Origin: Lytechinus pictus | Lineage: Eukaryota | Assembly (NCBI RefSeq): GCF_037042905.1 | Contig: NC_087251.1 | Span: forward strand, 14,386,001 to 14,450,000 | Length of the DNA stretch: 64,000 nucleotides | Direction of reading: 5' to 3' | Shown: one piece after another, positions 14,694-55,400 of the stretch | Position numbering within the stretch: position 1 is the first letter of the stretch | Layout of the letters: the number at the start of each line of letters is the position of its first letter | Made by a program: the position numbers and the translations under genes | Notes under the pieces: model-generated | Database searches by the model: none | Told to the model about the DNA's origin: nothing | What the model saw: the letters and a program-made list of their open reading frames with translations, nothing else

Positions 14694-14850
14694 CCCGGGG
14701 GTGCCACTTACATTGACGAGTGGATACCATGCGCGACCAAAAAAAAACACGTAAAAAGGATGTCTTTTTCAATAAGAGAGGGCACGTTACGTACGTAACG
14801 TGATAGGGTGTCAAAAACACAAAAATATTGAAAAAAGGGTATCTATTTCC
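14694..14850 (+). mobile_element. Possible truncated end of a CCCGGGGG-terminated (EnSpm/CACTA-like) MITE embedded in the arm; mirrored at ~23075-23233
   Basis: CCCGGGGGTGCCACTTACATTGACGAGTGGATACC resembles a MITE terminus; present in both arms. Confidence 0.45.
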
Positions 14851-15023
14851 AGTACGTTGAGAGGCAAATGTCAGATCAGGGGAGGCAGGAGTACAATCAG
14901 GTTTTTTTAAAGGGAAGAATAGTGTAGAATAAAAGGTATTATATATACCCAAATGAGCTAGGTGAGGGAAGTGAACAATGATGTTTTTTAAAAAAAGAAT
15001 GAATATATATACCTTACCTGAAT

Positions 15024-22900: not shown

Positions 22901-22915
22901 CCATAATATTCAGGT
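19910..22915 (-). repeat. Same ~70-bp satellite in inverted orientation, right arm, roughly 43 copies with a ~970-980-bp higher-order repeat
   Basis: Reverse complement of the left array; blocks starting at 19921 and 20891 are near-identical. Confidence 0.97.
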
Positions 22916-23363
22916 AAGGTATATTCATTCTTTTTTTAAAAAACATCATTGTTCACTTCCCTCACCTAGATCATTTGGGTATATATAATACCTTTTATTC
23001 TACACTATTCTTCCCTTTAAAAAAACCTGATTGTACTCCTGCCTCCCCTGATCTGACATTTGCCTCTCAATTAACGTACTGGAAATAGATACCCTTTTTT
23101 CAATATTTTTGTGTTTTTGACACCCTTATCACGTTACGTACGTAACGTGCCCTCTCTTGAAAAAGACATCCTTTTTACGTGTTTTTTTGGTCGCGCATGG
23201 TATCCACTCGTCAATGTAAGTGGCACCCCCGGGCGTACTGTACATAGTGTTATTTTATTATCTCTTTGTATTGGAAACTTCGTTTTACCGAATTGCCATG
23301 CACTCTCTCCGACGCGTTTGAAGTCTTAGACAGCATGGCATACTACCAGCCGATGGTACACAC

Positions 23364-25065
23364 CACTGGCGTAAATCCGTGTTGATGGGTGGGGGGGATG
23401 ACTGAAATATTTTGGCTTTTTTTTTTGCAGTCATGTTTTTAGATATGCAAGGAATTGTCTTGATATGTACCGTGGGTCACGGCATTGGGGAGGGGGCACC
23501 AGCAAAATGTTTGAATCACTGAGTGAGCGCGCTCAGTTGCCAGTTATTCTGACCTAATAGAGACATTTTCTGGACAATGTCATTAAACGGATATGCATCT
23601 CACTGATCAAATAATGCGAGCGCGAAGCGCGAGCTGAATTTTTTTTATATTCACACCTAAAAAGAGACATTATAATCAAATTTGTGTAATCATGATAGGT
23701 ACCTGTCTCGCTAAACAATACGAGCGCGAAGCGCGAGCTGAAGTTTTCGTATATTTTTACCCCAAACAGCGAGATTTTGAGGAATATATTTTAGGAATCC
23801 ATTAAGAGTATGCATATCTCACCATAGTCATCTAATGCGAGTGCCAAGCGCTTGCTGGTTTATAAGAATTACATCTGAACACATGAAACACTTTTTGTAG
23901 TCATTGCAATCATGATTATCATACGCATCTCACTAATCAAATATTGCGAGCGCGAAGCGCGAGCTGAAAATTTAGATAATTCAGACCTGAAGTGGGGCAT
24001 TCTAAGGTTTCTTTCTAGGAATTAACTAGGACCATCCGTAATTCAATATCCAAATGATGCGAGCGCGAAGCGCGAGCTGAAAATTTTTGATATTCAGATC
24101 AGAAGGGACATTTTAAGGACTGATTTTAGGAATTCATGAAGAGCAGACATATTTCACCAATCCACTAATGCGAACGTAATCACGGACAGGAAATGTTTTA
24201 TATATAAGAAGACCTTAACATGGGGCAATTAATTTTTGAGTCATGAAAAAGAAGCATATGTCATTACATAAAACAATGATAACTCAAGTGCTAGGAAATA
24301 TATTTTGTTTATATTGACTTGAAAACGGGATGTTTCAGTACAACATGATTATATATCTCGTTAGCAGACAATACAAGCACCAGGAACAATGAAGACGTAG
24401 GCCCTGGGCAAATTATGTTTCATGAAGTTATGATAAAAAAATTTCTTATGTAATGCAACATAACATAATTATAATATAACATTATAATGAATAATATTTT
24501 CTTTTTTCCCACTATACGCTTCTCTTCCTTTCTCCCTCTTTTCTCCTTTTCCCCTTTTCCCCGTTTTTTTTTTTTTGGTCAGCCGATTGGGAGGGCACGT
24601 GCCCCCCATGCCCCCCCCCCCGTAGTTACGCCACTGTATGTCCATATGGCAAATACCCCTCCAATATTATCATCTTTTTTACCCCATGATGGTTTAATGG
24701 TTTTATTAGAGATTACATTAAAAAAAAATTGACATTCCATCTTAATCCCTTCCCAAAGACACCAACATTGATGAAGTGGAAGAAACGGGAGTTTCTCTTC
24801 AATGTTATGATAAGGACAGAAGTATTTCGTTTGGAAATGGTGAACTGGCTCTTTATTTGCATGTTATGATTCAATAATATTGTTTTATTTGTTAAGCGGT
24901 ATTTCAGGAAGAATTTTCACCAATAAAACAATTATCTCTTGTGATGTTTTTTTTTCTTCATTTCTTTCGTAAAAAGTGGGGGGGATGTTTGTACAGGCCA
25001 TCCCCCCCTCCTCGAAAAGTGGGGGGGATATATCCCCCCCATCCCCCCCGGGATTTACGCCAGTG
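23364..25065. mobile_element. Non-autonomous hAT-type element nested in the right Foldback arm
   Basis: 15-bp TIR CACTGGCGTAAATCC/GGATTTACGCCAGTG; 8-bp TSD GTACACAC (23356-23363, 25066-25073); the left arm shows the empty site. Confidence 0.9.
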
Positions 25066-25283
25066 GTACACACACGCACACACACACACGTTATTTGACA
25101 ACTTGTCTCTGGAGCCAAAGTTCCTCGCATATAACTATCTGCATGCCTGCACGCAGTGTGTATTGAACACGCACGACCACGATCTAATGAATATTCATCG
25201 GCGAGACTGACGTCATTTTACGAGTCTCCTTTCAAACTTGGATCATAAGTGCCTACCTAAAAAATACAGCTGATCTCGAGTGC

Positions 25284-25293
25284 GCGCATGCGC
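25284..25293. promoter_or_regulatory. NRF1-type palindromic site GCGCATGCGC in the proximal promoter/5' leader
   Basis: Exact NRF1 core 30 bp upstream of the ATG. Confidence 0.55.
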
Positions 25294-25323
25294 TCTGCAT
25301 ACATATACGGCAAGCAACGCAAC

Positions 25324-25410
25324 ATGGAGGCCTACCAAGATTACGAAGGACATGCCACAAAGCGGCAAAGAACAGATACCGGAGGAAGAGGGATACAATC
25401 TGGAGCTAGG
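25324..25410 (+). CDS. HNRNPL: hnRNP L coding exon 1 (MEAYQDYEGHATKRQRTDTGGRGIQSGAR)
   Basis: Good start context AACATGG; KRQRTD resembles the N-terminal basic motif of hnRNP L (vertebrate PKRLKTD); phase-0 donor AGG|GTATGA fits the phase-0 acceptor at 36035. Confidence 0.82.
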
Positions 25411-28400: not shown

Positions 28401-31400
28401 TTTTACTTTTTAGAATGCATTTTTCGTAAATAACGTCTCGTGCACAAGCTACCACAGACTACGAGCCGGGCTGCAGCGGCAAATTTAAAATTGAATATTA
28501 ATTTAAGGAGGTCGTTCGAAACTAGCTATTCATCGACCATTTTACGTGACAACTAGCTTCGGGGAAGTTAGGGGGCTGAATCGGTTATCTCTGTCCCTTT
28601 CTGGTCTCACAAAGGCCATAGTTTGACACTTAATATCTTCACTTTTTGGAAACCTTTGGAACTGGGAGTTGGTATGTTTGCTTTGATTTTGTTTTCTCTT
28701 TCATGTCATTGTAAATAAAAATGTGAAGACGTTCAAATAAAAATTTTAGGATTTCAATTTGTCCACCCTATCCAGGTTTGGATAAAACAGGGCAGTGAAG
28801 TTGCGCGACAGCTGAGGTAAGTCACTGTTTTTGTTCCTTTTAACTTGATTTTCCCTGTTTTTTGGCATTCAATGCCAAGAGGGAATATTAATTTGCATTT
28901 CGGTCGCTTTAGTTTTCAAAAGTTTGATTCATTAAAGACAAAAATTGAAGAGCCCCGACGGGGGGATTTTGCATTGTAAGTCCCCTAATGGTGGCTGCAC
29001 GATAGCGAGCCGTCTGTATGAGGAGAAATTAAAAAAATTAAAAAATGTTAAAAAACTCCTCGAAACAGACGGCTGTCAGCTGTCTACCTGTGATGCTGTG
29101 TGTGTGACTGTGGACAGTGTGGTGAAAAGTCTTTAAAATATCCTTTTTGTAAAAAAATATAACTCAGTTCCATTCATTTATGATTTTTTATTATTAAGTA
29201 GGGGTTCATTTTTTTTGTATTCACTGGAGTGCAGAATGGAACCTCAAAAACGAAAAGTTCTGTTGCGATACCTCTCGCTCTCCATCTTTCAAATTCAAAA
29301 CAAAATGGCCGATCGAGACCGAGGCTATATTTTGTTTTTTTGAGGTTCCAGTCTGTGCCTCGATGTCAGGATTTGTGTGTCACTATAGACCTTCATCCAT
29401 ATAATCGTGGTACATGTAAGTGCGTAATTTCTGTTTCCACATTTTATAAAGATTACTATTGTATTGAGATCCCAATCTACCCCAGTCCTGTGTCTCCCTC
29501 GTTTTGCACGGTCGACTCCTGGGTTCCGTTCGCGGGCCGGAGCTCCCTGGGTTATATGTAGGTTAACATTTTTCTCTGTTACTACTTCCTGTGTGCGGAA
29601 ATAAGGCTGGCAATGTTTGGCTTATTCTCTCTTTTTTGGGGGAAACAAATGCTTGATTTTTTTACATTATTTTTTTTCCATTATAACTATTCATCATATA
29701 GCTTGGTAAATTGAAGTCTAAGTATTTTTTCTAAATTAAAAGTAGAAATTGAAAATGAAAATATTCTTGAAATTTTACTTTCCAACAAACGCAAGTTGCA
29801 CAGTAGATATTGGATCTAGACTACTCGATTACTCAAAATAATGAAAATCAGTTATTTGTAGACAAAATAGGCCTACACAATCAATTAGTTAATCCATTAA
29901 TCTACAGAAAGAAAAAAAAAATGTTCCTCAAACAGATTTTCAAAGTTACTTAAAATATAAAGTAATGCTGAAGAGAATATTCCAGAAAAAGGAAGGTTAG
30001 CATGAGAAATTTTACATTTTAAGCTTACATATATATATCTTTTTTTTTTTTTTTTATATCACCTTTATTCAAAACAAAACAAAGGGAAGTTGCAAACAAT
30101 GAAAATAAGTCCAGGTTACTCGTTTTTTTAGGACGAAGTACAGGACTAATAAAATAATTACAGATATACAATATATAACATATCACAATCAAATTTACAT
30201 AAAACGATTATACATTGTACATTGATGATTGCAGAAAAGAAAATTGAAATAGATCAAGCACACACCCTTACAGCTGAAATGAAGAGAGGATAGAGGGGAG
30301 ATAGAAAGAGTGAACTTGATGAAGAGAAATAGGAGGAGGAAAAAGTGTGACGAGCAAAAAGAAGGGGGGAAACAGGATAAAGGGGAAGGCAGAGAAGGAG
30401 AATGAAGAAAAAGAGGGATAAGAAGAAGTAAGGGAGTGCAATACAAAGTTTTGTGAATAAGATATTGCATTATTGGCATATAATTTACTTTACAAAAATC
30501 ATCTACCTACTTATACATCCAGAAGACTAGATGAGCTGACAAGATAGTGGAAAGGTGAAGATAGGGAAATAGTAGAGGGAGAGAGAGAGAAAGAGAAAAA
30601 GAGGGTTGAGAGAAAGAGGGGAGGAAGAGTGGAAAGGTGAGTGAAAGAAGAGAAAAGAGAGAAGAAGCCTTCCCGTACACATGGTACATGTCGTGATTTC
30701 TCGATCTAAAAGATTCATATCTGTCCATTGCGGCTCTGCCCGAGCATTGAAGATGACATAAGACCCCACAAGAGCTAGTTTGCTTATCTTACGAATGGTG
30801 TCCTTACATACTCTACTATTTACAAGAGTATGGCCTCCTGTCAACGACAAGGCTGTTTGCCGATGATTGTGTCATTTACACTTCTGGCACAAATTCTAAT
30901 GACTTTCAAATCCTCCAAGACGATCTGTCAAAACTAGAAGAGTGGCAGAATAAATGGGCCATGTCCTTCAATCCAGCCAAATGTGTCATCATGAAAATAC
31001 CATCCAAGGCAGTACAGATTCCAACAGAAAGAGATTACACCTTCTGTGGCCAAAAACTACAAGAAGTGTCTACATGCTCTTACCTTGGTGTTGAAATGGA
31101 TAACAGGATGCGCTGGGACGCCCAGATCAACAAAGTCTGCTCCAAAGCTTCCAGAGTACTCGGTTTCCTGAGAAGGAACTTTTGGTCTGCTCCCAAGGAA
31201 ATAAAACAACTTTCCTACCAAACGTTGGTGAGACCAATCCTGGAATACGCCTCCCCTGCATGGGATCCCCATTACAAGAAGGATACCCAGAAAATAGAAG
31301 CCATTCAGAGAAAGGCAGCTCCTTTCTGTATGGGGAACTACAGACAAACCAGTAGCGTCACAACCATGTTACGGGCCTTAGAATGGGACTCATTGGAAGA

Positions 31401-34400
31401 CAGACGGAAATACAGTAGACTGAGCCTAATGTTCCAAATAATCAAAGGTCTTGTTGCCATCAACCCCAAAAACTTCATCCAGCAAAACACCCGGCAGACT
31501 AGAGGAAATAGTATCAAGCTCCAGCGTCTACTAGTCAAAAGGGATGTTCATGGATACAGCTTCTTCCCTCGAACTACCAAAGATTGGAACGAGTTAAACA
31601 TGGACACAACATTGATAAACTCATTAGACTCTTTCAAATCCAAACTCAATCAAAAACCTAGCAAGTGACCTGCTTACTTGGTGATTTCACACACATCAAT
31701 AAAGTTGGCGGAGTACAGCAAGTCTGCATATGCCGACTTAACCCAAGACAAGACAAGACAAGACAAGACGGAAAATCTTAATCTGTTGTTTGTTTTCTTT
31801 AGTAATAACACCTCGACTTCCAACTGTGTTTCACAATTGGCTGCCCTAATGTCCTCATTCAGTTGTGCATATCGTTCTAGTTTCCTCACTCTAGCTCTTG
31901 GAATATTGGGCTCAAATGGTACTGTGAGCTCAGCCATCACTACTTGGGGTATATCTCTGAAGAATAGTACCAAATCCGGCTTTCAGTTGTCGGCATAATG
32001 TTAGGGGGAATCGTTCCCCCACCCACTAACCAGGAAGATCTGCAAATATTGTCACAGGAATCATATTTTCTCCTGCTATTCTTTTCAGTTCATTTGCAAT
32101 ATGATGCAATATGCTGTTGTGTCTATAGGTAAACCGGACCTGATCAAGAGCTATCGAGCAGGAATTTAGGATATGCACAAGTGAACCTCTACACCTACAC
32201 AAGCTACATGTTTCATTAAGTTTCTTGCCCCACATTTTCAAGTTTTCTGGAGTTGGGAGACAGTCGATTGCTGCCCGGGTTGCAAAACTTAAGAGACCTT
32301 TTGGGAGACCATACATGATCCCTTTCCATGTGAGGTCACTCTCTTCCTCCTCTAACAATTGTAAAAGATTGCCTTGTTTAGCGAGAGAAGATATACGGTC
32401 AGACCATTTCTCATGTTTGTTCTCTAATATAACACTCTTCAAAACCCATTTTACCCCTTTCCATGATTGAGATTCAGTAACATTTTCTGTTGCATTGATC
32501 ATTTCCATAGATTTTGTAACACCGAAGTTTTTTTGTCTCACCTGCATAGCAGAGTGAGACTATAGGCGCCGCTTTTCCGACGGCGGCGGCGGCGTCAACA
32601 CCAAATCTTAACCTGAGGTTAAGTTTTTGAAATGACAGCATAACTTAGAAAGTATATGGACCTAGTTCATGAAACTTGGCCATAAGGTTAATCAAGTATT
32701 ACTGAACATCCTGCCTGAGTTTCATGTCACATGACCAAGGTCAAAGGTCATTTAGGGTCAATGAACTTAGACCATGTTGGGGGAATCAACATCAAAATCT
32801 TAACCTAAGGTTAAGTTTTTGAAATGTCATCATAACTTAGAAAATATATGGACCTAGTTCATGAAACTTATACATAAGGTTAATCAAGTATCAGTGAACA
32901 TCCTGCATGAGTTTCACGTCACATGACCAAGGTCAAAGGTCATTTAGGGTCAATGAACTTTGGCCGAATTGGGGGTATCTGTTGAATTACCATCATAACT
33001 TTGAAAGTTTATGGATCTGATTCATGAAACTTGGACATAATAGTAATCACGTATTACTGAACATCCTGTGCAAGTTTCAGGTCACATGATCAAGGTCAAA
33101 GGTCATTTAGGGTCAATGAACTTTGGCCAAATTGGGGTATTTGTTGAATTGCCATCATATCTCTATAAGTGTATTGGTCTAGTTCATAAAACGTGGAAAT
33201 AAGAGTAACCAAGTATCACTGAACATCTTGTGCGAGTTATAGTAGTTTTCAAAATCAGCACTGCTGCTATATTGAATCGCGTGATGCAGGTGAGACGGCC
33301 AGAGGCATTCCACTTGTTTATTTAGACACCCACTTGCTCTCTCTGTTAACTTTAGACATGACCGCATGTTTCACTTTTGTATCCCCTTTTGATAGTGTTA
33401 TTTATTATGTATTATTTTGTTCTAAAATGTCTTTTTACAAAATGAAATTTGCATTTTGTTGAATATATTGTAATTGCAATGTTTATTTTAATATTTCATA
33501 AAACGGCTCCACACTAACCCTTTTTTTCTACTGGTCCAACCTATTCATGTCGGACCAGTTTTTCCATTTTTTACTGGTCCGATCCTAAAATCTACTGGTC
33601 CCAAAAAATAAAGAAAACATTAAGAAAAGGCGCGAGTTTAATTTGCTGTCCTTTCTCGTTACCCCCCCCCCAAAAAAAAAAATGAATGAAAGACAAAAAG
33701 AAAGAACTAAAGGAAGAAAGAAGGAAAGGAAGGAAGGAAAGAAAGAACAAAAGTAATAAAGGAATTTAAAAAATGAAAGTAAAGAAATGAAGCAAGCAAT
33801 AAAGAAAGAAAGAACAAAAGTAATAAAGGAATTTAAAAAATGAAAGTAAAGAAATGAAGCAAGCAATAAAGAAAGAAAGAACAAAAGTTAGAAAGTAATG
33901 AAGGAAAGAAAGAAGGAAAGACGCAATAAAAAGAGAAAGAAAGGGTAAAAGGAGAGATGGAAAGAATGAAAAAAGAAAGGAAGAAAGAAAGGTAGGAAGG
34001 ATTGAAAGAAGGAAGAGAGGAATTAAGGAAGAAATAAAGAAAAGGTAAAACGATTGAAAGAAAAAAGAATGAAGGAAAGAAATAAAAAAGGAAGGAAGAA
34101 AGCAAGCAATATAAAAAAGAAAGAAAAGGTAAAATAGATGAAAGGAAGAAAAAAAAGAAAGACAGAAAGGAAGGAATGAAGGAAAGAAAGAATGAAAGAA
34201 GAAAGGAAGCAAGCAGTAAAAAAAAAAAAAAGGTAAAAGGATAGATGAAACAAAGGGAAAAAAGAAAGAAAGAACAAAAGACAGAAAAAAGGAAGGAATG
34301 AATGAAAGAAAGAAAGGGCTGAAAGAAGGAAGAAATAAAAACAAAGGGTAAAGAAAGGATGGATGGAAGGAAGAAAGAAACAAAGAATGAAGGAAAGAAA

Positions 34401-37400: not shown

Positions 37401-40400
37401 TTTGACAAAGCAGGGGCGAAAATGTAAATTTATTCAATTTCCATACAATGCAGGAAATTACGAATGCAATTTAACCCTTCCCCTTGATATACCAGTATTT
37501 ATAATTTATATAGTCATTAATGGATAGATTTGCTGTAAAAATACCTCCATCATGTTTTCTAGCTTTTTCCATCTAGTCCTCTTTTTGTGTATTTATGCAC
37601 ATCTTTAACAGTACCAGAACAAGAAACATTCTTCTTGTGAACTACACACACTGTACATGTATTGTTGTCCAGTGTTAGATAATAAAGATAAAATGAATGG
37701 TTTAACTATTTATGGTTACATGAAAATTCACTGATCAATTGATGTTATTATGTTGAACAGAGAAAATGACAGCGAGGCAAACAATGTACTTCTCATGACA
37801 ATTGTTAGACCCAAGTTCAATATCAGCACGGTAAGTTTAAGTACTCATTTGTCAATAATTTGTGGTCGAATATTACTGCAAATTTTGTATCTTCAGTTTT
37901 AAGAACCTTGTGCTTAATAGTCGTACATCAAGATCTGTTGCATTGGATAAAAGATTTGAAAGATGTATTTCATATTGTGCATTTTTATAATCTCATTGCA
38001 AAGGAACATTTACATTGTAATATCCCTTTTAAGGATCAAGCTTTTCCAATTCTTCACAATCAATATTCAAACAAATGGAAATATTAACTGTGCAAGTATT
38101 TTGCATTTATTGGTATTTTCATCTTTCTCTCTCCATATTTATAATTTTTTCAGGATGTCATTCATACCATCTGCAAAAAATATGGAAATGTCCTCCGCAT
38201 TGTCATCTTCAGGAAGAACGGTACCCAAGCCATGGTGGAATATCCTTTACATCATTTTGCTGTCTTTATTTTTAACCCTTATTCCAATTTCCCCACACCA
38301 AATCTACTTTAATTGTGCCTGTGTTTTCTTTTATGTCTTTAAATGTCTGTGAGTTCCGTGAGCGTGCAGTAGACAAAATCATATGGATGCAAAATTGCAT
38401 GTGAATGGATTAAAAATTGGACAAATGATGCCATAATTGTAATATAGGCTGAATGATTGATATCAAACAACCAATCAAATGACAAGGATTTGTTTTAACG
38501 TGTCATATAATATACAAATAATGAATGTTTATGAGTGAAATAGATGGAATATTTCATTGGGAGGATTAAAACTGACAATAGAGTTCCAGGATAATGTAGA
38601 AATCACAATAGAGAATACCAAGGTTGATGAGTTCCAGGTAAGAAGATTGATGATGATTGAAGGTGAAAGGAATGTAGTAGAGTGGCAGCAAAGGTATACA
38701 GTACTTACAATATATCAAGTAGATGGGACTGTAGTTAATGATGAGTAGAAATCCAAAAAAAAAAAAGCATACAGGACAAAAGTTAAGTTCCAAAAGAAGT
38801 GTTTGAAATGTACTCCTGGGCGATACATATGCTTATTCCAACATCACGCACTTGTTGTCACAATGGCTATATAATCCTAGATCAATGAAAATAAACAAAA
38901 TTCTGGGAGTCTAAAAGTCAATCTTCAAAAGACGGATCCTTTTTAGGATGAACATATGCCCAAGAAAGAATGCATGGTGTACCGTGAAAGTACTATACTC
39001 TGCTGTTGATGATGATGAAAGAACTATCCTTAATTCGTTCAGCACGTTTGACAACATTCAGAGTGCCACACAAGCCAAGCAGAATCTGCACAACTGTGAC
39101 ATCTATGCTGGTTGTTGCACACTCAAGATTGACTATGCAAGGGTATGTGATTTCCTCCATATACTAATTCTTATTTATAGCTAGTACTTTCTATATACCC
39201 TAATAATAAATGACCACCTTGTTATAGACAACTCAGTAGTCTGTATAAAAATGAATTTATGAATATGTCATCTCTGGAGAAATAAATGACACATGAAGCT
39301 TGAGATCCTGTTGCTCTCCGAGCCTATGAAAAAAAAAGTGAAAACAATTTGAAAGAATGAAGTGCAAATGCATTTACATATATACATGTACAGTATGTGC
39401 TATTCAATTTAAAAGATATTTCATTTGATTTTAAATCTATGAAAAGAAAGAGTGTTTGAAATCAGTACAATATATATGGTACATGTATTCCACTTTCTAT
39501 CATGAGACCGATTTCACCTTTTTACTTATTTACATATGCAGCCTAAAACCCTGACTGTCTACAAGAATGACGGAGAGACATTTGACTACACTAAGCCTGG
39601 TTTGAATGCAGGTAAGCTCTCGTGGAATTATGGACAATTTTTTGTTAAAAAGACACATAGAAAATGTTTGGCAATATAAAGAAAAGAAAGAATTGGCCAA
39701 GTTTTCCCACTTGAGTTCATGCCAAGTGGCATTTGTATTGAGCGTACATGTAATGCTGAACCTCTAATTAAGAGGGCTAGTTTGGATATTGTGATGGTAA
39801 ATCAATCTTTCCTTGAACGATGGATACTAGCATGTTGGTTGATTTGATTCTTTTCTCTTTTTTTGAATTAGTTGTTCTCAATCAAAACATAGGACAGAAT
39901 TCATCCTGATTTAAATGAACATCTCTGAAGTGCTACATTTTGAATGTATAAACTGATAGTGCCAGAACTTTATTTTTGATATTTGAGTGAGCATTTGCTA
40001 CTTATTCCTAATATGAGGGCATTTATTATTCAATGGTATTTATGATTATATAATGGAAAGTATATTTAATCAAAATTTGACTAGTTAAGACTAATTTTGT
40101 TTGGTGATTTGTACATTTCATAACAAACTGTGTTTTTTATCACAATTTGATTACGACATACACAAATCATAACTGCATATAAAAGATCATTGTATAAATA
40201 CAGTAGAACTCGTACGCAGTCTTTTCAATTTGATCACAAAGAGATCTTGGCGTTGTTTATGTAAATAGTCCTGATTGATCCAAATCAAGTATTCATGTAT
40301 AAACCTGTATGGTTGTATCTACTGCATTCATTATTTGTATCAATACTTAAATGGTTGATTTGAGTCAATTTAGACTGTTTATGAGAATGGTCCAGGTCTA

Positions 40401-43400
40401 CAGATTAATACGAACAAATGCAATCAAATGTAAACTTCCATAGCCAGTAATGCTGCAGTCACATTTCCCCTATGGTGTCCGCACGGTGAGTCGTAAAAAC
40501 AGCCGTTTAAGGGATTTCTATACAAACAACATACAAGAAACTGCTATAAAACTGATAAACACTTCTGATTTTGACTTGTCGTACAGCCATCTTAGGCGAA
40601 TGTGAATGCGCCATTATTTATCAAAATGGACAGACATAACAGAAAATTATTCAGATTGGATTTACATGTACACTACCTTTTTAAGATATAAATTGTCATA
40701 TATTTTCATCAGTTCTTGCCATTTCTAGCAATTAATTGGAACATTGCATGCAGAAAGTATATACAAAGTAGTCAAATATGAACATATCTTCAGAATGATA
40801 AAAGAAAGAACCATAATCTGAAAAAAATCATCAAATACATGTACATGTAGGTCTTGCTTGAGGAGAAAGTTGAAGAACTAGTTCTTTTAAAAATTCCATT
40901 ACTGACCAATTTATGCACAGATATATTTTTTCTTTCAATAAAAGAAAAAAAAAATTATCATGTGAGTTATTTTGTGATGTACATTATATGATGACGCCTT
41001 GAACAACATTTTGATTCGTGTATGATGTAGATGTAGGGATTTCCAAACAACAAATACAGAAATGCAAGACTATGTTTCTCGTGAATGACAACTTCATGTA
41101 CAATGATTTAATTACGTATACCCTGTACATATTTATAGTTCAGAATATATACTTTTATACATGTACATGTGACTTAACCCTTATTTAACTGGCTGATCTT
41201 TTTACTTTCAAGACTTGCGCATCTTTTTTTAAGACCAAATTTGTGATGCGCGGGTACACAGTTCCGAAATTTTATGCAAGAATTTGTACTAAAAGTGCAT
41301 GTCAGAACCAAAATTGCTCAAATACATTATTTCATGTACAAAGTTAATACAAATTGTGTTTTCAACCAAAAATTATAAATGTACAGTATGTTTATTTTTT
41401 CTTTTGCTGGTTTGAATGGATTTGTTCTATGTTGTTTATAATCACAGAAGAGTCCCCAACAAAGTTCATTAAAAAATTAATAAAAAACAAAGAAATACAT
41501 TTGAAATTTAATACATAGGATATAAATGTTTTTGTAGATATTTTTATTTTTTTAGATATTTGTTAAAAATATCAAAGTCAATGTTTTCACAAAAAGGGCC
41601 ATTATACTAGCTATTTAAAGTGAGTTAAAGGCGAAAACTTGATTTCATACACTAATTTGCATGATTCATTTCTTACAATTTTAAGCAAATATTTTGAAAA
41701 TTTTATTTTATTGTCTGTAGTTTACATCTGGCTCTATGCGCATGCAAAATTTTTGCGGCAATTGCGCGATCAGTGGCCGAGATCAGTAAAAACTGGGACT
41801 AAAATTGCCAAGTTAAATTAGGGTTAAACTCTTTTAACATTACTTTTTGCTTTAGCCATGTTAGCAATTGAGAAGCACTGTCTTTTCTTTTTAATCCTGG
41901 AAGTATGATACACATGAATCATACATGTATTATCTATATGCTTGTCAGTACATTTAAGGATGAATTACTTTTAGCCTAGTATTGCAAAGAGCAAACAGAG
42001 GGTAATCTGCCACTATTTTACAGAAAATACAAATCTTGATAGGAAGATTAACATATCTTGTGTTTTGTTTTTCTTATCAGAAGATTTTACATATTCATGT
42101 TCCTGTAACAACTAACGTCTTGAAATTCAATGTGTAATATATTTTCATGAACTGTACACTACATGTATGTGAGACTTTTGTTGTCAGTACACTACTAGAT
42201 CTTACAGAACAGAGCCTGTACCTCCACAATACATTGCAGTATGCACACGTACATGTATGTAAGTTTTATTTCGAAAATTTTCAAAATCTGTAAGTATGTC
42301 ATTTTTACTCTTGAAACAGCCATTTCAATCTATGATAATTTATTGGTGTGGGAAAGAGAGAAAATGATATGTATACATGTATATATGCATAAACATAACT
42401 TTTCTCAATTGAAGAGTGAACACAAATATCCATAAAATGACATTGCCTAGCAAAGACTTGTAAATCAGGTACATGAGAATACATCCTGGGCAAAAGGCAG
42501 CTCAGAAAAAAATAATAGTATGGGAGGAAACTATAAAAAAATAATATCAAATTTTGAAGAAAAAAAATGATAGAGAACATGAAAGGAATCCACATTAGAT
42601 ATGGTTCCCCACACACCATGATGTTGCGAAGGTTAAAAATTGATGTCTTTGAATATTGCCATGTTTCCTTCTTTGCAATGGCTGTTTTTCCCAGTGTTCT
42701 ATTACACAAGTTATACATTCACATGTATATTAGAAGATAATCAATAATGTCATACAAATGTTAAATCACATGTAATTCTCAGTGTATAAAATGTAGTGTA
42801 TGTGAATAAAGTGGGACAAAGGTATCAAATATATTTTTTTGTAAGAGCAGTTTGAGATTCATGATCCCCACAATTGGGAAACAATACATCTGATTACTGT
42901 GTTTGACAATTCATGCAAATTTTGACTGTGATAACATACAAGGTAAATGACAACTGTGCATTGTAATCTGTGCCAAATGAGTCCCCAAAATCATGCACAC
43001 TCGAATACCATCCAAATATATTTTTTTTAAATCATAAAACCAAGAATTGTTTCAGAGAGTTTATGGTCCTCTTTTGCATATGACACCAGACAGAAGCAAA
43101 AAATTGACATGTGTGTACTACTATGCAGCTTTTCAATAGTTCAATACATTAAGACTTAATACCGGGTAGTTTTGGTAATATGTACTATATACTTCATTAG
43201 AGATAACTTAATTGACATTGAACATGATACACATTGGACATTATGAGTTGTTAAAATGTGCATGGAGAACATCTTATTCATTGACCCAAAATAGGTACAT
43301 ACAACGTTTATCTAGTCAAGAGAAGAATACGAACAATTGAACATTAACTGTAGAGACACTACTGTGAGACACCTCATACTCAAACGATGCCAACCAGATC

Positions 43401-46400
43401 CATCACCACTGCCAATTCTTAAAATAAAAACTCAAAAGATATCAGAAAACCACTCATGATGTACGGTACCTCGTGTCCAACAGGCTGGACATCACTTCCT
43501 CCAGCATTTCAACCAGACTTGCATCTATCTGGATTCAACCTTGACTTTTGGCAAAGACTTCCGGTTTTCACATCACTATGAAGCGCCCATCGAGGCATCC
43601 TTTGGCCAGGTTACAAATTTCTAATGGGCATCGATGACATCAGCCATCATTCAAGAGCTTTTCACAGGAATCTTAATTACTTTTGGTACATTTAAAGGTA
43701 ATATTGAGAACATGAGTGTAAGAGTAAGTGGTGCATATATCAGCCTTCAAGATTGACCAGGATTTACCAGAACTGTCCAGATGCTAATGATGCCTCCAAA
43801 ATTTGTCTTTGTTCTTTAAGTACTGAAATAATTTGCATATATACATATGTGTAATATACTGATGGTGATTTCATTCTTTATACCTTCACATGTGTTTTTT
43901 TTTTTTTGGGGGGGTGCTGTTGTAAATGTGAAGAATCCTTTTTTTGTTAGTTTTGAAGATATCTTTTTAGGTGTTGTTTTATATGTACTTCCTGTGGTCT
44001 GTGTGTGATAATTGGAGGATGAATTTGTATTTACAGTGAAAAAGATTTTAAATTAAGCTCAAGATCTTTGAATTATTCCGAGGTCTATTTATTTTCTACT
44101 CATGAATGGTAATTGTCTGCTCTTCAGGGGATTCTTTTGATTTTTAAGTTGAAAAGAAAGTGCTGGTCAAGACTTTTTTTCATTCCACTTTTCATCATAC
44201 ACGTTTCAGCTTCCCATACATATTGTAAGAAGAGTAAGATATAAACCTTAAAAATATGATATAACCGCCCTTTTATCCCCATGAAGATCAGTGTAAATTG
44301 ATTTCTTATTGCAATTTTTGTACAGCTGCCCAAGGTCGTGCACTTCTTGAAGATCCCCCTGAACCTGCATACAATGGACCTACTCAAATGAGGAGGGATG
44401 GAGGTGGACCTCAGTATGGTGATTATGGTATGCATTTTTCTGTTATATGTTTGTTATGTTTTTTAATTTTTTTATGTGAGGAGGGGGGTTTATTACAAAA
44501 TGCATATTGAATTGCATGTAGGATTCTGAATACATATTGGATGTTTCCTGCTTTTAGTGGCTTCACTTACTCAAAAGGTTCGTAAATTTTTAAAAGGTTA
44601 TGACTTTTATTTGCTGCCTTTCCTTCTCATTTAGTTTCAACTCGATATTTATTTTGAATTACAACTGTATGTACTTCGTTGTTGTATATGTATTGCTTTA
44701 AAATTTGTTGTGAAAGGGATTTTATTTTGATCCTTTGCACGAAAACATGCAAGAATCATTCTCAACTACTACATTGGTGAATTTGTGGTGTCCCCTTCAA
44801 TGGTATTTTCTTATGTGTTTTAAATTCTTACATGTAAGTTGATTGTGTGTATAAGTTAGTAATAAGTGTGTGCACTCAATATAGTGTGCATGCACTTGCA
44901 TCTATTGTATTCATATTCATGTTATACCTGTATGTCATATGTTCAGTCTAATAACTTTACAATCAACCATTTTGAACTTGTTTATTTGGTGTCATTTTTA
45001 AAGGAATGCAAGGTCCTCCCCAGGGTGGACGACGTGGTGGACCTCAAGGTTACCATGATCAGGGCTATGGACCAGGAGGACCCCGTGGGTACCCTGCTGA
45101 CCGTGGAGATTATGGTTACGGTGGTGGACATGATATGATGGGCATGCAGTCCCCTCAGATGCACCAGCTAGGCAATGGTAACCCAGTGATTATGGTCTAC
45201 AACATGAACCCCAATCAGATGAACTGTGACAAACTCTTCAATCTCCTCTGCCTCTATGGCAATGTCATGAAGGTGAGAACATTTTTTTCTTCCCAGAAAC
45301 TTCCAGATGCATATTTTTTCACCCTTTAAAAAAAAAGATTAATACTTAATTGTGCCCTTCAAAACGAAGTTACATTGGTCCGATCATTAGCTTTTATACA
45401 TGTAACAGCAAAATTTTCAGTAGTTCATTGAACATCTTGAATCGAAAGACTAATTTACTCATGTGCTTGTTTCACTTGTTGCATTTTTACATGGCTAATA
45501 TGGTTTTTTAGATGACTAAGAATATAATGTCAAAATAACTTGTCACACAATGTTTCTATCATAGAAGTTGTTGAACTTGTAAATAAATGGTGAGAGATAC
45601 TGGTCTATGTTCCCTACCAGATCAAGTTTATGAAGAGCAAGCCTGGTTGTGCTATGGCCGAGATGTCAGATGCCCTATCAGTGGAGAGAGCTATTACTAA
45701 TCTTAGCAACATTGAGTTCTTTGGCTCTGCTGTCCAGCTTTCGTAAGTTTTATAAATCAGAATTTTACCCCCATTCGAACTAAAGACATGCCTGTTGCTC
45801 TATTTCATTTTGGGGAGAGGGGATGTTCATTTAACTGTTCATAAGTATACAAATGATGCATGGGTTAGAGTGGGTCAGTAGGAACTGTGTGCACAAGGTA
45901 ACTTTGGCATGGTTTAACCCACGAGGCGCAGCCGAGTGGGTTTAGACCATAATGCCAAAGTTACCGCGTGCACACAGTTCCACTGACCCACGAAAGAAAC
46001 CCATGCATCATCTGTTTTATAGAATGGAAAAATTTTATTGAATAAACCACAAAAATTAATGATTTACCGGATGCATGATAATTTCATGCGTCCAGTAAAT
46101 TCAATTTACTGGACGCATGAAAATATTTACTGGACGCATGATTTTTTTTACTGGACGCATGATTTTTTACCGGATGCATGAAAATTCCAAAATGTAATGC
46201 AGACCCTTTGATAACCCTGGAAAACATAAATATGTATGCCTAACTTGATAATATGTTGGCACAAAGGCATCATTATACCCAAAATGCCAGATACAGCTTT
46301 GCATTGACTAGATCTATGAGGCAGCCATAGCTGTGTGTGTATACCGGGGCCGCTCCGGTGGCCAGTGCCTACGGCTGCCTGGGCCCGCACTGGAGATTTG

Positions 46401-49400
46401 GCTGTGCACAGCCAGCCCAGGGCAGTGCCAGTAGATCTATAAACGTTAGATCGTATGTCTGGACTTCTCAACTAACGAGTATGCAGGCAGTTTTAATCCC
46501 TATGACAATTACGGTAACGTATTTGTACTTACAGATCATTTTGCATCCTTTATTTGATTCATTCTGCCTTGATCGAAAATTCAAAATTTTGACGTAAACA
46601 AGCGTAACAGTACATGCGCGATGACATCACAATGACCTTTTCGGACGATAGCTTGTTTACAGTGGATATCGTTTTTATTATCGGGATATCGTTCATGCAG
46701 CCCAGTAAAAATTCTTGCATTGCTCTCAACCAATCAGATTGCAGGGATTTTCCCATCCATTCTATAATACCTCATAATGTAATGCACGATGACACGTTCA
46801 TTTGCAAAACGACATACCCCAAATTTCCCTGGTGTTCTAACAAAGTTGACTTAATTTAATTAACCGTAATCAAATTTTGATAGACAATAAACTTTTATCT
46901 CAAAGCTTATTTACAAGAAGAATTTCAATCTGCGTAGATCGTATTTCAACTCTGGCTTACGAGAATCTGATTATAAAACAACCAAGAACATGTTCCATTT
47001 GGGTTTAATGTATGGAAAGCTTTATGAAGCATCCCCCATTTTATTTAGCATAAAGCAATCTTACTTTGAGACATTAATAAAGTACAAGCTACATGTAAGA
47101 ATTGAAAAAAAAATGACTACTGTGCCATCTCACCCCCTTGTGTTCATGTTGAACAAATGTCTGGACATTTTGAAATGACAGTAACAACAAAAAAGAAGAC
47201 ATGGAGAAGAATTAGTTGCCATTGCGAATGTGCATAATCATGATCAATTTTAATTATCTTGTTTACTGCAGTTTCTCCAAGCAAAGCTCTGTTGCCCTGT
47301 CTCAGGTGCCAGGTGAGCTTCATGATGGTACACCTTCCTGCGTGGACTACACCAAGAGCCGTAACAATCGCTTCAGGAACAAGGAGGCAGCAAGCAAGAA
47401 CCATATCCTTTTATCACCATATTCATTTTGGGATGGATGGAGTGGGGTATAAAGATATTTGTATCATTTTAGTAAACTTTAAGTGTTTACCGGTTCACCA
47501 TGGAAAATGTTTGCTGAGCTTTGTCTCATACAGAGTACACACCCCATTCAAAAGAACACATTCATGCTTGATTTGAGATATCTTTATTAATTAAATTAAG
47601 TCAATATTTAACTGTTTGCCCGCCACGTACACAATCTCCCTGCACCACATTCAGTTTTAGGGGGTTCGTTTGTACTCTCTTTATTCAACTCGTAACTTTT
47701 GATAAGTATATTTTTATGAAAAATTTTGTGTAGTAATATTGAAGAGAAATATTTTTTTCTATGTTTGATATTGTAGATTTTGTAAAGTTCAAACTATAAA
47801 TGCGGTATTCAAGCTTTCATATAGAAGGGTATTCCATTCCTCTTATATAATACGTTATATTGAATTTTTATTTTTTTAGTTCAGTCAGAATATGTGTTCA
47901 TGAACTTTCATTGCTTCCCAAGTCCTGAAGGTTACACTGTGCCTGGCAATTTGAAACCGGCTTTCAAAAGTGACAATAAACTAAATAAACTAAATTCTAA
48001 GGTGCTTTTGAATAGATTTCCCATCTTTTCATAGTACTCTGGGTTCTTTTGAATAGACTTCATGTCTTTTCATACTTAATGCCCTTATTGTTGTTGTATC
48101 AAGTATTACTGTGTATCATTCTCAATTGCATGGAAAGCTGTGCAAGCTATTAGAATTGAAAGGAATGAATACAAGAACTTATTGATTTTCCCAACTACTC
48201 ATTTTGTTCTATACATTCAATTAACTACTTTTCAAAATCAATGTTTATATTATATTTATCAATTAACCTCCAGTTTAATTCAGTTTCCATTCAATTTCTA
48301 CTAGTTCACAATTATCCAATTGCAATTATTGATGCATCAACGATTATAGTTACTTTTGCAATTATTAATGAATTTGAATTTGCATTTTAATCATACTATT
48401 AGGTATTTCTATTCAACAATACTTGCACTTATTAATTATTATTCATTTCAATGATATGTATTCCATTTTTAATGTATTATTATTATTATTATTTTATTCG
48501 GCAATGTATTGATTTATTTTAATGTATATGTAAATGCATCACAATTCGGCTTTGCCGCCATGATGTATGAGTTTTATCAAATAAACCATTTATCTATCTA
48601 TCTATCTACATGTAATAGGTGAGTCTTGAACATAATGTAGGCCTATGTTTTTAAATGTACAAGTTATAGATTGAAGTATTCCTGGTGAACAATTTTAAAG
48701 TATGTTTGTTATTCATCATACTGTAGGGACCATTTTAGTTCATCAGAATGTTTCTGAAAGCAGTTGAAAAAAGAATTCTTGAAAAAACTCAATGTAGACA
48801 AGTGTCAGCTGTGTAATGGATGCTGGATGTGTGTAAAATGCAATGCATGCTTTGCTACCAGTAATTGTACATAGAGCAGTGGGTGTGCATTGTGAATGAA
48901 ATGAGACTTGAGTCAAAGTTGGCAGGCAATGAGTTAAGGGTTTTTCGTACCATCCACAAGTGGTGTGAAGAAGGTATTTCCAAGTACTGAAAATTTGACA
49001 CTGGCTTTTCCACCTTACGACAGTATTGAAATCATTAGTGTTTGCTTTCCTTGACTCCTCCATTACGTATTCAGCAGCCATCCAAGGTTCTGCATTTCTT
49101 CAATGCTCATCCAGAAAGTACTCCACAGACCATCAAACAGGTTTGTCAAGATTCTTTCCTTCAAAGTAGCTTGATAAATTAAAGCTGGATTTGATATATC
49201 ATCTGTTCTTATTGTCATTATTCTCCACTAAATGTGTGTAAGGGTAACACATGTATAGAGGAATTTGTATATTTCCTGTGTTTTTTTTAGGTCCATGTTA
49301 CATTACTTGAGAACTATGTGAAATGTGTCTAACGCGTGCTGCATGCATAATGCTTAGGGAATGCTTGTTAAATTTGAGGGGATGGTTAAAAAATATTTCA

Positions 49401-52400: not shown

Positions 52401-55400
52401 ATTGATGAAACACTCCCCAGGTACCAGGTATGTATTTGACCTTTGCTTTTTGTTTGGAAAAAATTTAAACAGTGAACTTCAACGTGGTCTCATCGACAAG
52501 CTGGATTAATGTACATGTATGTTTTGTCAAGCATGGGACACCTGATTTGATTTTTAGGATATTTGTCCAGAGTTGTGGACAAATTTTTAGTTTGTTCCAT
52601 TGGTGGCCTTGATTGACCTTTTTTCTTGCAATTGATGCATCATTCAGCCTCAGATTGTTTCTGAGCCCCTTAATATACACAGTAAATCTTGTGGCTTGGC
52701 CAGTGGAACTGTTGTATTCGGCACTTCTCTCTATTTCATCATAGCACTTGATGGATTTGGGATTTATTGGAGGAATTACATGACAACAAACACTATTTTG
52801 TTGTAATTGATGTATCACCCACCTTCTGCTTTGGCATCTGACTTATTTGCTGGTTGTTGAATCATAATATATTGTGATGGAGAAAATTAAACTAAAGATG
52901 TTGATACGGTCATGCTGGCATTGGCATTGGATCTTGATCAAACTTGATTATATTTCTGAAGAGAAAGGACAGTCCTTGGTATTTAGATTAAGGTGTACCT
53001 GTAAGGGACTTATAAAATGATTGATTGGGGAAAAAACACTAAGTTTTGATGGAAAAAATAATAATTTTGGAGATTAAAAATTACAATTTCCTCTTCCAAA
53101 CGTTGGTAGCTCTGTGCGATGGGATATTAATTCTAGAATACTGAATAAAGTATTTATTTTAGAGAATTACCAGAAAAGATCCAGGAAGCATGATCCATTA
53201 GTTTCTTGCTCCTGAGCTGTTTTGGAGTTACTGATTTTCTAGTTTTCTAGAACTTTTTCTCATTGCCATTGCAAAACAACCAAAAAAAATATCAAAATTA
53301 AACTTATAATGATAGTATAATGAAACAGTCTTAAAATTGTATAACATAGTATACTGTGATATGAAATTGATTGGCCCAAATATTCAAAATGGTGATTTTA
53401 AATATGTGGTTGAAAACCATGATTCATTCTTATTTCATGCATTGACTACACTTTATTGAGCAAGTCTATTGAAGAAAGGTTCAGAATGAATGCATGCTTT
53501 GTCACGGGGCTAAATTCATGCTTGTTTGTATGGTTTGAGTATTATAGTACCAAAGTTTTGAGTTTTGACTCAGCAATTGCACAAAATTTATAACAAATAA
53601 TGCACAATATCTGCTGAAAACAATTGTTTGAACCACTAATTAAAATACACCGTTGTGAATTCAGCCCATATCAGCTTTTTGTTTATAAGATGAAAGAGGG
53701 GGATTTGGTATGAAGCTACTAAAGCTATATGAGATTGATGGGAGGGGGCATGGAACACAATATGCATACAGTGACACACACAAACATTAACAATGTTTAC
53801 TATCTATGGTGATCTTTGTATTTATGAGATTTCCATCTGTAATTGCACATTTTCATTCTTTTTAATTTTAACCAACATATCTGCACTATAGATGTATTGT
53901 AATGTGCATGCCAGGAGACAATTATACTATTGTTAATAACAAATGCTCTTTCTACAATAAACCTGTGTAGTGTATCTAGGACTTTGGTCAAATTGAGCAC
54001 ATTTGCATCGCAGATGCAGTTTAGTTGTGTATTGTGTATGTTTATCTGTTTGTGTTAGTTGAATATAATTGCAAAGCACTCTCCACTTGCTTGTTCAGTG
54101 TATTACTTCTCTATTCATGATCTCAAAGAAGTAAAAGGACGCTTTCAACAATTAGTGAAATATGTTTAGTGTGCATGATCAGTCACATAATATCAGCAGT
54201 CTATAGTCCCAAGACCTTTTTCGATTGCACTCTTATTATTGATCTTATTACAGCAACAAATACAGTGGGTCCAAGAAAAAGGGAACCTTGTTTCAGAGAT
54301 AATGTCTCAAGCATCAAATATGCCTTGAATCAATAGCAAATAATAACAATGGTTTGATTCGAGACCAAGCCTTGTGAATTACAAATCTAAGTCAATTTGA
54401 ATTTGAAGCTTGAATTCACAAATGTTTCAATTTTTGCTGTTATTGATACATGTACAAATCAACTTGTTTTTATTGTCTCACCTGCATAGCAGAGTGAGAC
54501 TATAGGCGCCGCTTTTCCGACGGCGACGGCGGCGGCGGCGGCGACGGCGACGGCGGCGTCAACACCAAATCTTAACCTGAGGTTAAGTTTTTGAAATGAC
54601 AGCATAACTTAGAAAGTATATGGACCTAGTTCATGAAACTTGGCCATAAGGTTAATCAAGTATTACTGAACATCCTGCCTGAGTTTCATGTCACATGACC
54701 AAGGTCAAAGGTCATTTAGGGTCAATGAACTTAGACCATGTTGGGGGAATCAACATCAAAATCTTAACCTAAGGTTAAGTTTTTGAAATGTCATCATAAC
54801 TTAGAAAATATATGGACCTAGTTCATGAAACTTATACATGAGGTTAATCAAGTATCACTGAACATCCTGCATGAGTTTCACGTCACATGACCAAGGTCAA
54901 AGGTCATTTAGGGTCAATGAACTTTGGCCGAATTGGGGGTATCTGTTGAATTACCATCATAACTTTGAAAGTTTATGGATCTGATTCATGAAACTTGGAC
55001 ATAATAGTAATCAAGTATTACTGAACATCCTGTGCAAGTTTCAGGTCACATGATCAAGGTCAAAGGTCATTTAGGGTCAATGAACTTTGGCCAAATTGGG
55101 GTATTTGTTGAATTACAGCCATAAATTTGAAAGTGTGTTGGTCTAGTTCATAAAACTTGGACATAATAGTAATCAAGTATCACTGAACATCCTGTGCGAG
55201 TTTCAGGTCACATGATCAAGGTCAAAGGTCATGTAAGGTCAAAGAACTTTGGCCACGTTGGGGGTATTTGTTGAATTGCCATCATATCTCTATAAGTGTA
55301 TTGGTCTAGTTCATAAAACGTGGAAATAAGAGTAACCAAGTATCACTGAACATCTTGTGCGAGTTATAGTAGTTTTCAAAATCAGCACTGCTGCTATATT

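Follow-up and report, generated by a model that had tools for sequence, protein, structure and literature searches.

A possible unproductive-splicing switch in the sea urchin hnRNP L intron that corresponds to the site of the mammalian poison exon

The window, the whole 64,000-nt stretch of Lytechinus pictus DNA analysed here, contains an hnRNP L orthologue, as the initial annotation had proposed. The best solved-structure matches of the encoded protein were to hnRNP L (E 3e-61), with PTB far lower, and all 15 of 15 matches fell on a single contig (14,411,288-14,443,085), indicating that the urchin carries one hnRNP L gene. The exon at 39542..39611, aligned with fish DTWDYTNPNLSGQ, corresponds to the human exon that precedes poison exon 6A, as judged from the alignment and from a published human/mouse skip-junction primer. 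This primer encodes N-L-S-G-Q-G and, when aligned to the urchin through fish P0037, places the same phase-1 intron after the RRM2-tail exon, confirming the suggested homology with human intron 6. A phase-1 GT also follows the RRM2-tail exon in 16 of the 19 genomic loci examined (13 + 3), the remaining three not being readable as such. The features of this region are as follows.

39542..39611, + strand: constitutive 70-nt exon encoding the RRM2 end (PKTLTVYKND...), with a phase-1 donor; joints 39142>39542 and 39611>44326 in four of four runs
39612..44325, + strand: intron of 4714 nt, defined from the sequence and selectively retained in organism B RNA contigs
43300..43723, + strand: GC-richer, CA-skewed stretch around the internal acceptor, with neither a CA repeat nor a tetramer cluster by composition counts
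43481..43484, + strand: internal 3' splice site (CAG|G), weak, with 43484 as the first base included; GT..AG joint 39608>43481, cut +3, depth 46.7 in X8
43484..43928, + strand: minimum included segment in X8 by contig depths, extending past all three proposed donors
43579..43581, + strand: predicted in-frame premature stop TGA, from the phase-1 reading of the sequence
43607..43729, + strand: three candidate donors, after 43609, 43697 and 43723; GT in the sequence, 6-7 of 9 consensus matches
43929..44325, + strand: 3' part of the intron; in X5 continuous with the next exon at depth 57.1, in X8 a hole and then about 100 nt at the exon boundary
44326..44427, + strand: constitutive 102-nt exon downstream of the intron; joints in four of four runs and RefSeq-named proteins

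The block at 43300..43723 stands out by composition, with a GC content of 0.40-0.44 compared with 0.22-0.39 in the remaining intron, in line with its description as GC-richer. The acceptor at 43484 does have the poor pyrimidine tract ascribed to it, with 57% Y (29% T), whereas five coding-exon acceptors have 67-76% Y, and it ranks 31st among the 106 YAG sites of the intron. The initial annotation had named membership in a multi-copy repeat as one of the outcomes that would overturn its reading; the block instead matched its own genome once, in a search where the lack of a match does not prove rarity, and it was absent from the repeat families shown for the window. Neither strand of 43300-43723 has an open frame reaching 70 codons that could represent a nested antisense gene, and we found neither an Rfam family near the block nor a stable RNA structure (fold z -1.06) that would indicate a noncoding RNA. 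Recursive splicing was likewise set aside, because joining to 43484 leaves CAG|GCTGG, which is not a GT donor. The block differed from the sequence of one close relative (organism B, ~95% identical) at 11 of 354 positions. This is fewer than in the other X8 intron pieces taken together (179 of 2690, p=0.007) but no different from the repeat-poor ones among them (63 of 1516, p=0.45).

Use of the acceptor was examined in four RNA runs, comprising two RNA-contig runs of organism B (X5 and X8) and two raw-read runs of the window's own species (X19 and X20). These runs were picked for containing this stretch, which biases them toward intron-rich libraries; negative results for joints apply to the joints listed (13 joints were not shown, and raw-run joints were listed from 3 reads). 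Joining of 39611 to 43484, the junction proposed for checking, was found as an exact GT..AG joint in one of the four runs, X8, where its depth of 46.7 against 156.9 for skipping corresponds to ~23% of the joints leaving 39611. The acceptor at 43484 is thus used in RNA of a close relative. The joint is carried by one contig with a short side of 26 nt, and four letters fit both sides. Depth in X8 rises from 19.8 to 60 at 43484, a step that we attribute to splicing at this site because the joint's own depth accounts for the difference. Only this weak site among the 106 YAG sites of the intron has a listed internal GT..AG joint. The same joint was absent among the joints listed in X5, and in X19 and X20 it was not listed (fewer than 3 reads per run, against 39 and 48 for skipping), which excludes 23% inclusion in the two window-species runs (p about 1e-7); block depth in these runs was 1.24 and 0.

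The intron is also unusual in its retention. Its repeat-poor bins had depths of 15-62 in X5 and 6-55 in X8, compared with 0-3 in two other intron bins and 212-378 in exons; it was retained in both organism B runs, and other introns, including a U12 intron, were empty. Within X8, record 10 spans 43481-43834 at depth 60, and the following contig continues at depth 54.4 to about 43928. Subtracting the skip joint from the exon depth leaves 54.8, in agreement with the depth of 54.4 for the contig in the 3' part of the intron, and the depths close exactly, with 13,279 depth-bases in the bin 43402-43642 both as observed and as summed. A coverage hole follows at 43929-44250 in X8, although holes in filtered contigs prove nothing. 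The included RNA therefore probably runs on unspliced into the next exon at 44326. The initial annotation had instead envisaged a short cassette closed by its own donor after 43609, 43697 or 43723. The GT sites exist, and those after 43723 and 43697 match the consensus at 7 of 9 positions, equal to several constitutive donors. However, no joint from a block donor, including any to 44326, was among the joints listed in the four runs, and the residual depth for such a joint in two X8 bins was 0 and 48 depth-bases, leaving room for none. The cassette form was thus not supported in X8, where the included RNA reaches at least 43928, past all three donors, and so looks more like an intermediate held back in splicing or the product of a 3' splice site lying upstream of the usual one.

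Reading on from 43484 in phase 1 gives 32 further residues and then TGA at 43579-43581, just as had been predicted. How far this stop lies above the 44427 junction varies with the 3' boundary assumed (130, 218, 244 or 846 nt), and the distance exceeds 50 nt for each boundary considered. Judged from the reading frame, RNA joined at 43484 would give a protein cut short after RRM2.

The support for CA-rich control was mixed. There are 46 CA against 22 TG in 43300-43723, which falls in the top ~1% of 10,224 background windows for a window picked after the fact. ACAT occurs 62 times across the intron, compared with 43.4±5.4 in shuffles, part of the excess being due to the palindrome ACATGT; with ACATGT masked, the antisense strand carried tetramers at the same density (139 vs 131). 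The CACA/ACAC sense-to-antisense ratio was 45:49 in this intron and 42:90 over the remaining internal introns of the gene (p=0.018), and the relative CA excess over the other introns was mild (p=0.045 and 0.018). Published hnRNP L tetramers were not enriched upstream of the acceptor (background fraction 0.08-0.24 over five window sizes). The CA skew and the intron-wide ACAT excess claimed earlier were thus recovered, but not a clear hnRNP L-type CA cluster upstream, and the candidate CA cluster of the block is weak.

Evidence from other lineages consists of single records each from metagenome sources. The architecture proposed for the urchin recurs in another lineage: compared with L049, L070 is extended at this junction by 76 nt through an upstream acceptor, which shifts the frame, and three related genomic loci (L076, L077 and L080) have an internal acceptor in common and carry an in-frame TAA at one shared codon position. 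Two proteins from one contig (P0174 and P0175) imply that, in another lineage, a cassette containing a stop sits at this junction, and L067 and L068 have a conserved island in the same intron. A stop-creating insert at this junction was carried by one of 46 read-through loci. Comparison of the urchin intron with 80 metagenome loci returned only short AT-rich chance matches, and the L067 island scored 23 against the urchin block, compared with a background mean of 23.5, indicating no similarity. Three other invertebrate lineages are predicted from sequence to carry an insert that creates a stop, or a conserved island, in this intron; no similarity of these to the urchin block was detected.

Taken together, we propose, with a probability of about 0.5 for the scheme as a whole, that this intron is an unproductive-splicing switch, including feedback, of the single hnRNP L gene. 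By default, 39611 is joined to 44326, as observed, and the full protein is encoded. Under some conditions, 39611 would be joined to the weak acceptor at 43484, as observed in one run of the close relative, and contig depths suggest that the rest of the intron would stay in, lengthening the next exon by 842 nt. The frame then ends at 43579 after RRM2, 846 nt above the next junction, a distance that suggests nuclear detention or NMD of the 43484-joined RNA. The choice of 43484 is probably favoured by hnRNP L itself, acting on scattered CA-rich sites in a negative feedback like that of mammals; this step is drawn by analogy and is the weakest one.

The strongest rival, though an unlikely one, is a classic poison cassette from 43484 to 43723 (or to 43697 or 43609), with the observed RNA being a nuclear intermediate that still contains the downstream intron and the spliced form being cleared by NMD and too rare for contigs. 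Contigs do drop rare variants, so that rare NMD-cleared forms could escape them, and two of the donors (after 43723 and 43697) match the consensus as well as several constitutive ones. According to the available part of PMC5311500, knockout of Upf2 in the mouse raises the Hnrnpl NMD isoform about 60-fold, and in that of PMC4379411 introns retained beside such exons are common. The cassette implied by P0174/P0175 lies at the same junction. Against these points stand the lack of a block-donor joint among the joints listed and the closed depths in X8. Less probable still is that 43484 is a cryptic acceptor under no regulation, used as a leak in one species or condition because the intron is long and slow to splice, and serving no selected function. 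The weak acceptor and its appearance in one run would fit such a leak, as would a block divergence no lower than the repeat-poor background and the lack of a stable RNA structure, an Rfam family or similarity to the invertebrate islands. However, a 23% share is high for noise, the one YAG site with a listed internal joint is a weak one, and the position is that of the mammalian regulated intron, with signs there in three other lineages.

We consider it very improbable that 43484 opens an alternative last exon encoding a truncated RRM1-RRM2 protein with a 32-residue tail. The frame is open for that length, but AATAAA and ATTAAA are absent from 43484-44325 and X5 coverage continues into the next exon. 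In addition, protein searches with the tail gave either no candidate or five weak matches, three of which were examined and proved to be unrelated repeat proteins, and none of the six Lytechinus-named isoforms contains it. Least credible of all is that the joint, seen in a single contig, arose by misassembly or template switching, as the 26-nt side and the four shared letters might suggest, since the joint falls exactly on an annotated donor and a predicted AG and its depth explains the step in coverage.

To our knowledge, few alternative splicing events are common to several animal phyla, SRSF5 being the standard case. If the switch proposed here is real, hnRNP L would be a second such family after SRSF5, with splicing-factor feedback tied to a fixed intron whose sequence is free to change. 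Slightly more tentatively than the switch itself, we suggest that, ever since the bilaterian ancestor, hnRNP L has limited its own level by splicing this one intron unproductively. For more than 550 million years, the site and the premature stop would have been preserved, whereas the sequence would have changed, as would the form of the splicing: a 70-nt cassette, a long extension from an upstream acceptor or a retained intron. This turnover would span mammals, sea urchins and at least three further invertebrate lineages, arthropods not among them. The acceptor at 43484 also offers a defined target in the embryo of a sea urchin whose only hnRNP L gene is free of the vertebrate L/LL cross-regulation. 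No report of poison splicing in an invertebrate hnRNP L was found in the literature searched.

The urchin event resembles that of human HNRNPL exon 6A in the orthologous gene, the same intron and phase, and the predicted in-frame stop after RRM2 with loss of RRM3-4. Unlike the 70-nt human cassette, the included urchin piece is at least 445 nt long, no donor was seen used and the CA cluster is weak. When 53 of the 70 nt of human exon 6A were compared by eye with the block, no alignment was evident. The last bases of the human exon around its stop may resemble the stop context at 43573-43589. In the available portions of PMC7547044, PMC7764535, PMC6885243 and PMC6547761, through which we cite Rossbach et al. 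2009, the human/mouse exon 6A (also numbered exon 7 or 6) is described as a 70-nt cassette with proven NMD and hnRNP L dependence. The paralogous hnRNP LL also has an NMD-responsive poison exon, cross-regulated by hnRNP L according to the accessible part of PMC7764535, which suggests an origin before the vertebrate duplication; with its single gene, the urchin, unlike hnRNP LL, could only regulate itself. The intron position shared with the human poison exon hints that the proposed feedback switch is far older than vertebrates. For SRSF5, the available part of Lareau and Brenner 2015 (PMC4379411) describes unproductive splicing conserved across animals and fungi. As at hnRNP L, a stop-creating event occurs at one homologous intron across phyla, sea urchin included, and its form varies among cassette, alternative 3' site and retention. 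In contrast to hnRNP L, which belongs to another protein family and for which the evidence is one urchin run and metagenome records, SRSF5 has in that account broad EST support and a sequence similarity that reaches the sea urchin.

The genome of Lytechinus pictus (812 Mb) carries a single hnRNP L gene, as all 15 of the 15 six-frame matches fall within one 32-kb span inside the window. An exon of the window shows full identity to proteins named Lytechinus pictus hnRNP L-like, those of Strongylocentrotus and Diadema being next closest, and among solved structures hnRNP L gave the best matches, with PTB far lower. RNA mapping covered 4 of 21 listed runs: X19 and X20 are stranded raw runs of this species, about 6% of each sampled, and X5 and X8 are contig sets from two studies of organism B, a close relative, and the spliced junctions in both show that they contain RNA. 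Junctions 39142>39542, 39611>44326 and 44427>45004 (last upstream exon base > first downstream base) were present in all four runs. The features of the gene and its surroundings are as follows.

14371-25259: tandem arrays of 70-77 nt set as a large inverted repeat whose arms reach 247 nt (99%), resembling a foldback element and lying immediately 5' of the first exon
30757-31665 (+), 32029-32559 (-), 12632-13306 (-): frames like fragments of non-LTR retrotransposon reverse transcriptase, by eye
32578-33239: block of about 500 nt repeated at 54542-55365, up to 99%
25288-25410: first coding exon, intact, reading MRSAYIYGKQRNMEAYQ..., phase-0 donor
38240-39045: U12-type AT-AC intron, junction 38239>39046 (AT..AC) in all four runs, without retention
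about 47403-49068: second U12-type AT-AC intron, by sequence only
39612-44325: 4714-nt intron containing the candidate acceptor and block
43300-43723: GC-richer block, with candidate acceptor 43484 and TGA at 43579-43581
44210-44233: in-frame segment of 24 nt, a candidate microexon, lying 92 nt upstream of the next exon

Both U12-type introns have ATATCCTTT donors and branch-site-like TCCTTAAT and TCCTTGAC. Of the database proteins, P0001 and P0006 begin in a different frame of the first coding exon and have an unrelated N-terminus, probably through a faulty gene model; the expected start is found in P0007.

It is established that the 4714-nt intron is homologous to human HNRNPL intron 6, as had been proposed. 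A human/mouse skip-junction primer listed in PMC8718828 Table S3 reads N-L-S-G-Q-G with its break in phase 1, and the primers given in PMC6885243 show the HNRNPL poison exon flanked by the DQDTWDYTN and GDHPAEY stretches. The homologous exon of fish hnRNP L aligns with 39542-39611, and of 19 invertebrate genomic loci inspected, 16 have a phase-1 GT after this exon. The human poison exon, given as 70 nt in PMC6547761, showed no alignment of its first 53 nt with the block, judged by eye.

The initial annotation placed here a candidate poison exon running from 43484 to a donor at 43609, 43697 or 43723. We indeed found the acceptor, its 32-residue reading, the in-frame TGA and the three GT donors, and the block is not a multi-copy repeat (one match in its own genome). 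Its GC content exceeds that of the remaining intron. The acceptor has a weak pyrimidine tract (57% Y; rank 31 of 106 among the intron's YAG sites), and the TGA sits 130-846 nt above the next junction, depending on the 3' end of the included piece. Rfam gave no match to the block, its RNA fold was nothing unusual, and protein searches returned no homologue of the 32-residue tail.

Use of the acceptor was observed in the relative: the X8 junction 39608>43481 has GT..AG borders and, with the cut moved by +3, equals 39611>43484. Its depth was 46.7 versus 156.9 for the skip junction 39611>44326, a 23% share, and X8 depth jumps from 19.8 upstream to 60 at 43484. The junction was absent among those listed for X5, X19 and X20. 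X19 and X20 gave 39 and 48 skip reads with block depths of 1.24 and 0, and a 23% inclusion is therefore excluded there (p about 1e-7), which argues against constitutive use of the acceptor in Lytechinus pictus. An NMD target would be expected at a low steady-state level; in the data given in PMC5311500, the mouse Hnrnpl NMD isoform rises about 60-fold in Upf2 knockout.

The downstream closure of the cassette was not borne out in visible RNA. X8 record 10 spans 43481-43834 without a break, and in bin 43402-43642 three known records sum exactly to the observed 13,279, the following bin leaving 48 depth-bases, so that there is no room for a donor junction from 43609, 43697 or 43723. An X8 contig at depth 54.4 goes on to about 43928; exon depth minus the skip junction is 54.8, with an exon-boundary residue of about 100 nt at that depth, and the hole between this contig end and the exon boundary carries no evidential weight. 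In X5 a contig at depth 57.1 reaches the exon from about 43883; the mid-intron contig has depth 18 and the 5' part 50. From these X8 and X5 depths we infer a visible isoform that uses the upstream 3' splice site and keeps the remaining intron. Retention is selective: repeat-poor bins of this intron have depth 15-62 (X5) and 6-55 (X8), and bins in two other introns, one U12-type, have 0-3, which is within-run evidence only because the runs were chosen for holding this stretch. These estimates leave out bins 38341-38581, 40269-40509 and 40992-41714, where multi-copy repeat fragments draw reads from both strands.

The X5 5' intron contig (depth 50) stops just upstream of an AATAAA plus 10-nt A-run at 40937-40954, which may be a poly(A) site within the intron or a spot of internal priming at which this contig arose. 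The candidate microexon has a good pyrimidine tract and an AGA/GTAAGA donor, with no junction among those listed in the four runs; fish proteins P0037 and P0136 differ by a 12-residue cassette at the matching junction.

The intron had also been described as having a C/A-rich stretch upstream of the acceptor and many ACAT/ACAC motifs throughout, and this held in part. hnRNP L motifs reported in PMC3384337 rank CACA and ACAC high and TACA and CACC low; the set was not enriched upstream of 43484 (131-800-nt windows, fractions 0.08-0.24 versus a 200-kb genome background), and motif clusters are commoner on the antisense strand. On the sense strand the remaining introns of the gene are rich in TG, and relative to them this intron shows a modest CA excess (CA:TG 354:366 versus 500:629, p=0.045; CACA/ACAC sense:antisense 45:49 versus 42:90, p=0.018), clearest in 43300-43723 (46:22), a stretch picked after the fact. 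The intron-wide ACAT excess is real, and the palindrome ACATGT accounts for part of it, occurring 2.97 times per kb in this intron against 1.85 in the remaining internal introns of the gene and 0.55 in the background. The CA content is a weak signal with no cluster.

Homologous junctions were surveyed in 80 of 165 confirmed metagenome loci plus cluster members, and three lineages show signs there, independent hints of stop-creating events in other phyla. In a quick tree they and a nemertean form a group separate from arthropods and deuterostomes (SH-aLRT 96); another analysis gave only 83/90 for P0091. Proteins P0174 and P0175 come from a single 2197-nt contig: the N-half has a foreign 21-residue tail and then a stop directly after the homologous exon, a foreign head stands at the start of the C-half, and the junction residues would fit a cassette rather than a retained GT..AG intron. 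The sole difference between transcripts L070 and L049 is a 76-nt insert in L070 that shifts the frame and has a pyrimidine tract and TAG at its end, an upstream acceptor. In three related genomic loci the intron is 606-789 nt, the few neighbouring gaps measured being about 55-60 nt, and they share an internal donor, an internal acceptor lying 113-149 nt upstream of the exon and an in-frame TAA at an identical codon. These long introns, each with a conserved internal donor, an island holding acceptor and stop, and a 5' part skewed towards CA, are:

L076:2704-3371, CA:TG 21:3
L077:10348-11136, CA:TG 32:19
L080:1737-2342, CA:TG 25:5

L067:7694-7825 and L068:1081-1216 have a common CA-rich intronic island (137 nt, 86% identity, E 6e-35; other matched segments 74-80%) flanked by acceptor and donor, with a stop in L068 and an open frame in L067 using those sites; the island is itself a strong candidate for an hnRNP L regulatory exon. 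A stop-type insert occurs in just 1 of 46 read-through loci, many of them intronless or plainly spliced, and two mite-like loci have other introns CA-richer than the homologous one. No similarity to the block was found (L067 island tested; all loci compared with the intron). L005 and L007 differ by a 78-nt in-frame alternative exon right after the same junction, skipped in L005; among L011, L012 and L018, the last, from a related but not identical organism, has about 16 extra residues. Across animals, the homologous junction is a hotspot of alternative splicing.

Between Lytechinus pictus and organism B, the single close relative compared, 11 of 354 block sites differ (6 of 374 in two coding exons), below all other X8 intron pieces shown (179/2690, p=0.007) but not below the repeat-poor ones (63/1516, p=0.45); a 1-nt insertion at 43719 in X5 and X8 lies 3' of the stop. 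The best reading, at roughly 0.5, is that acceptor 43484 with intron retention would form a dose-limiting switch for hnRNP L, acting through NMD or nuclear detention and under hnRNP L control. A classic cassette, with its fully spliced product removed by NMD, is a tentative second, since contigs drop rare variants, although the visible X8 RNA does not end at the proposed donors; its function would be common to both. An unregulated leak of this stop-creating acceptor is doubtful, its use as a last exon giving a truncated protein is improbable, and still less probable is that the GT..AG junction is an artefact.

Taken together, a real, used and stop-creating acceptor lies in the homologue of the mammalian autoregulatory intron, in a differing form. 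Among the papers listed by literature searches, judged by title and the opening of the abstract, none reported such an event in invertebrates, and Rossbach 2009/2014 or their supplements may cover invertebrate conservation. We do not class the urchin event as an exon 6A member, because a short cassette was looked for and the included piece was not closed as one; as a dose-limiting switch, it would work like HNRNPL exon 6A.
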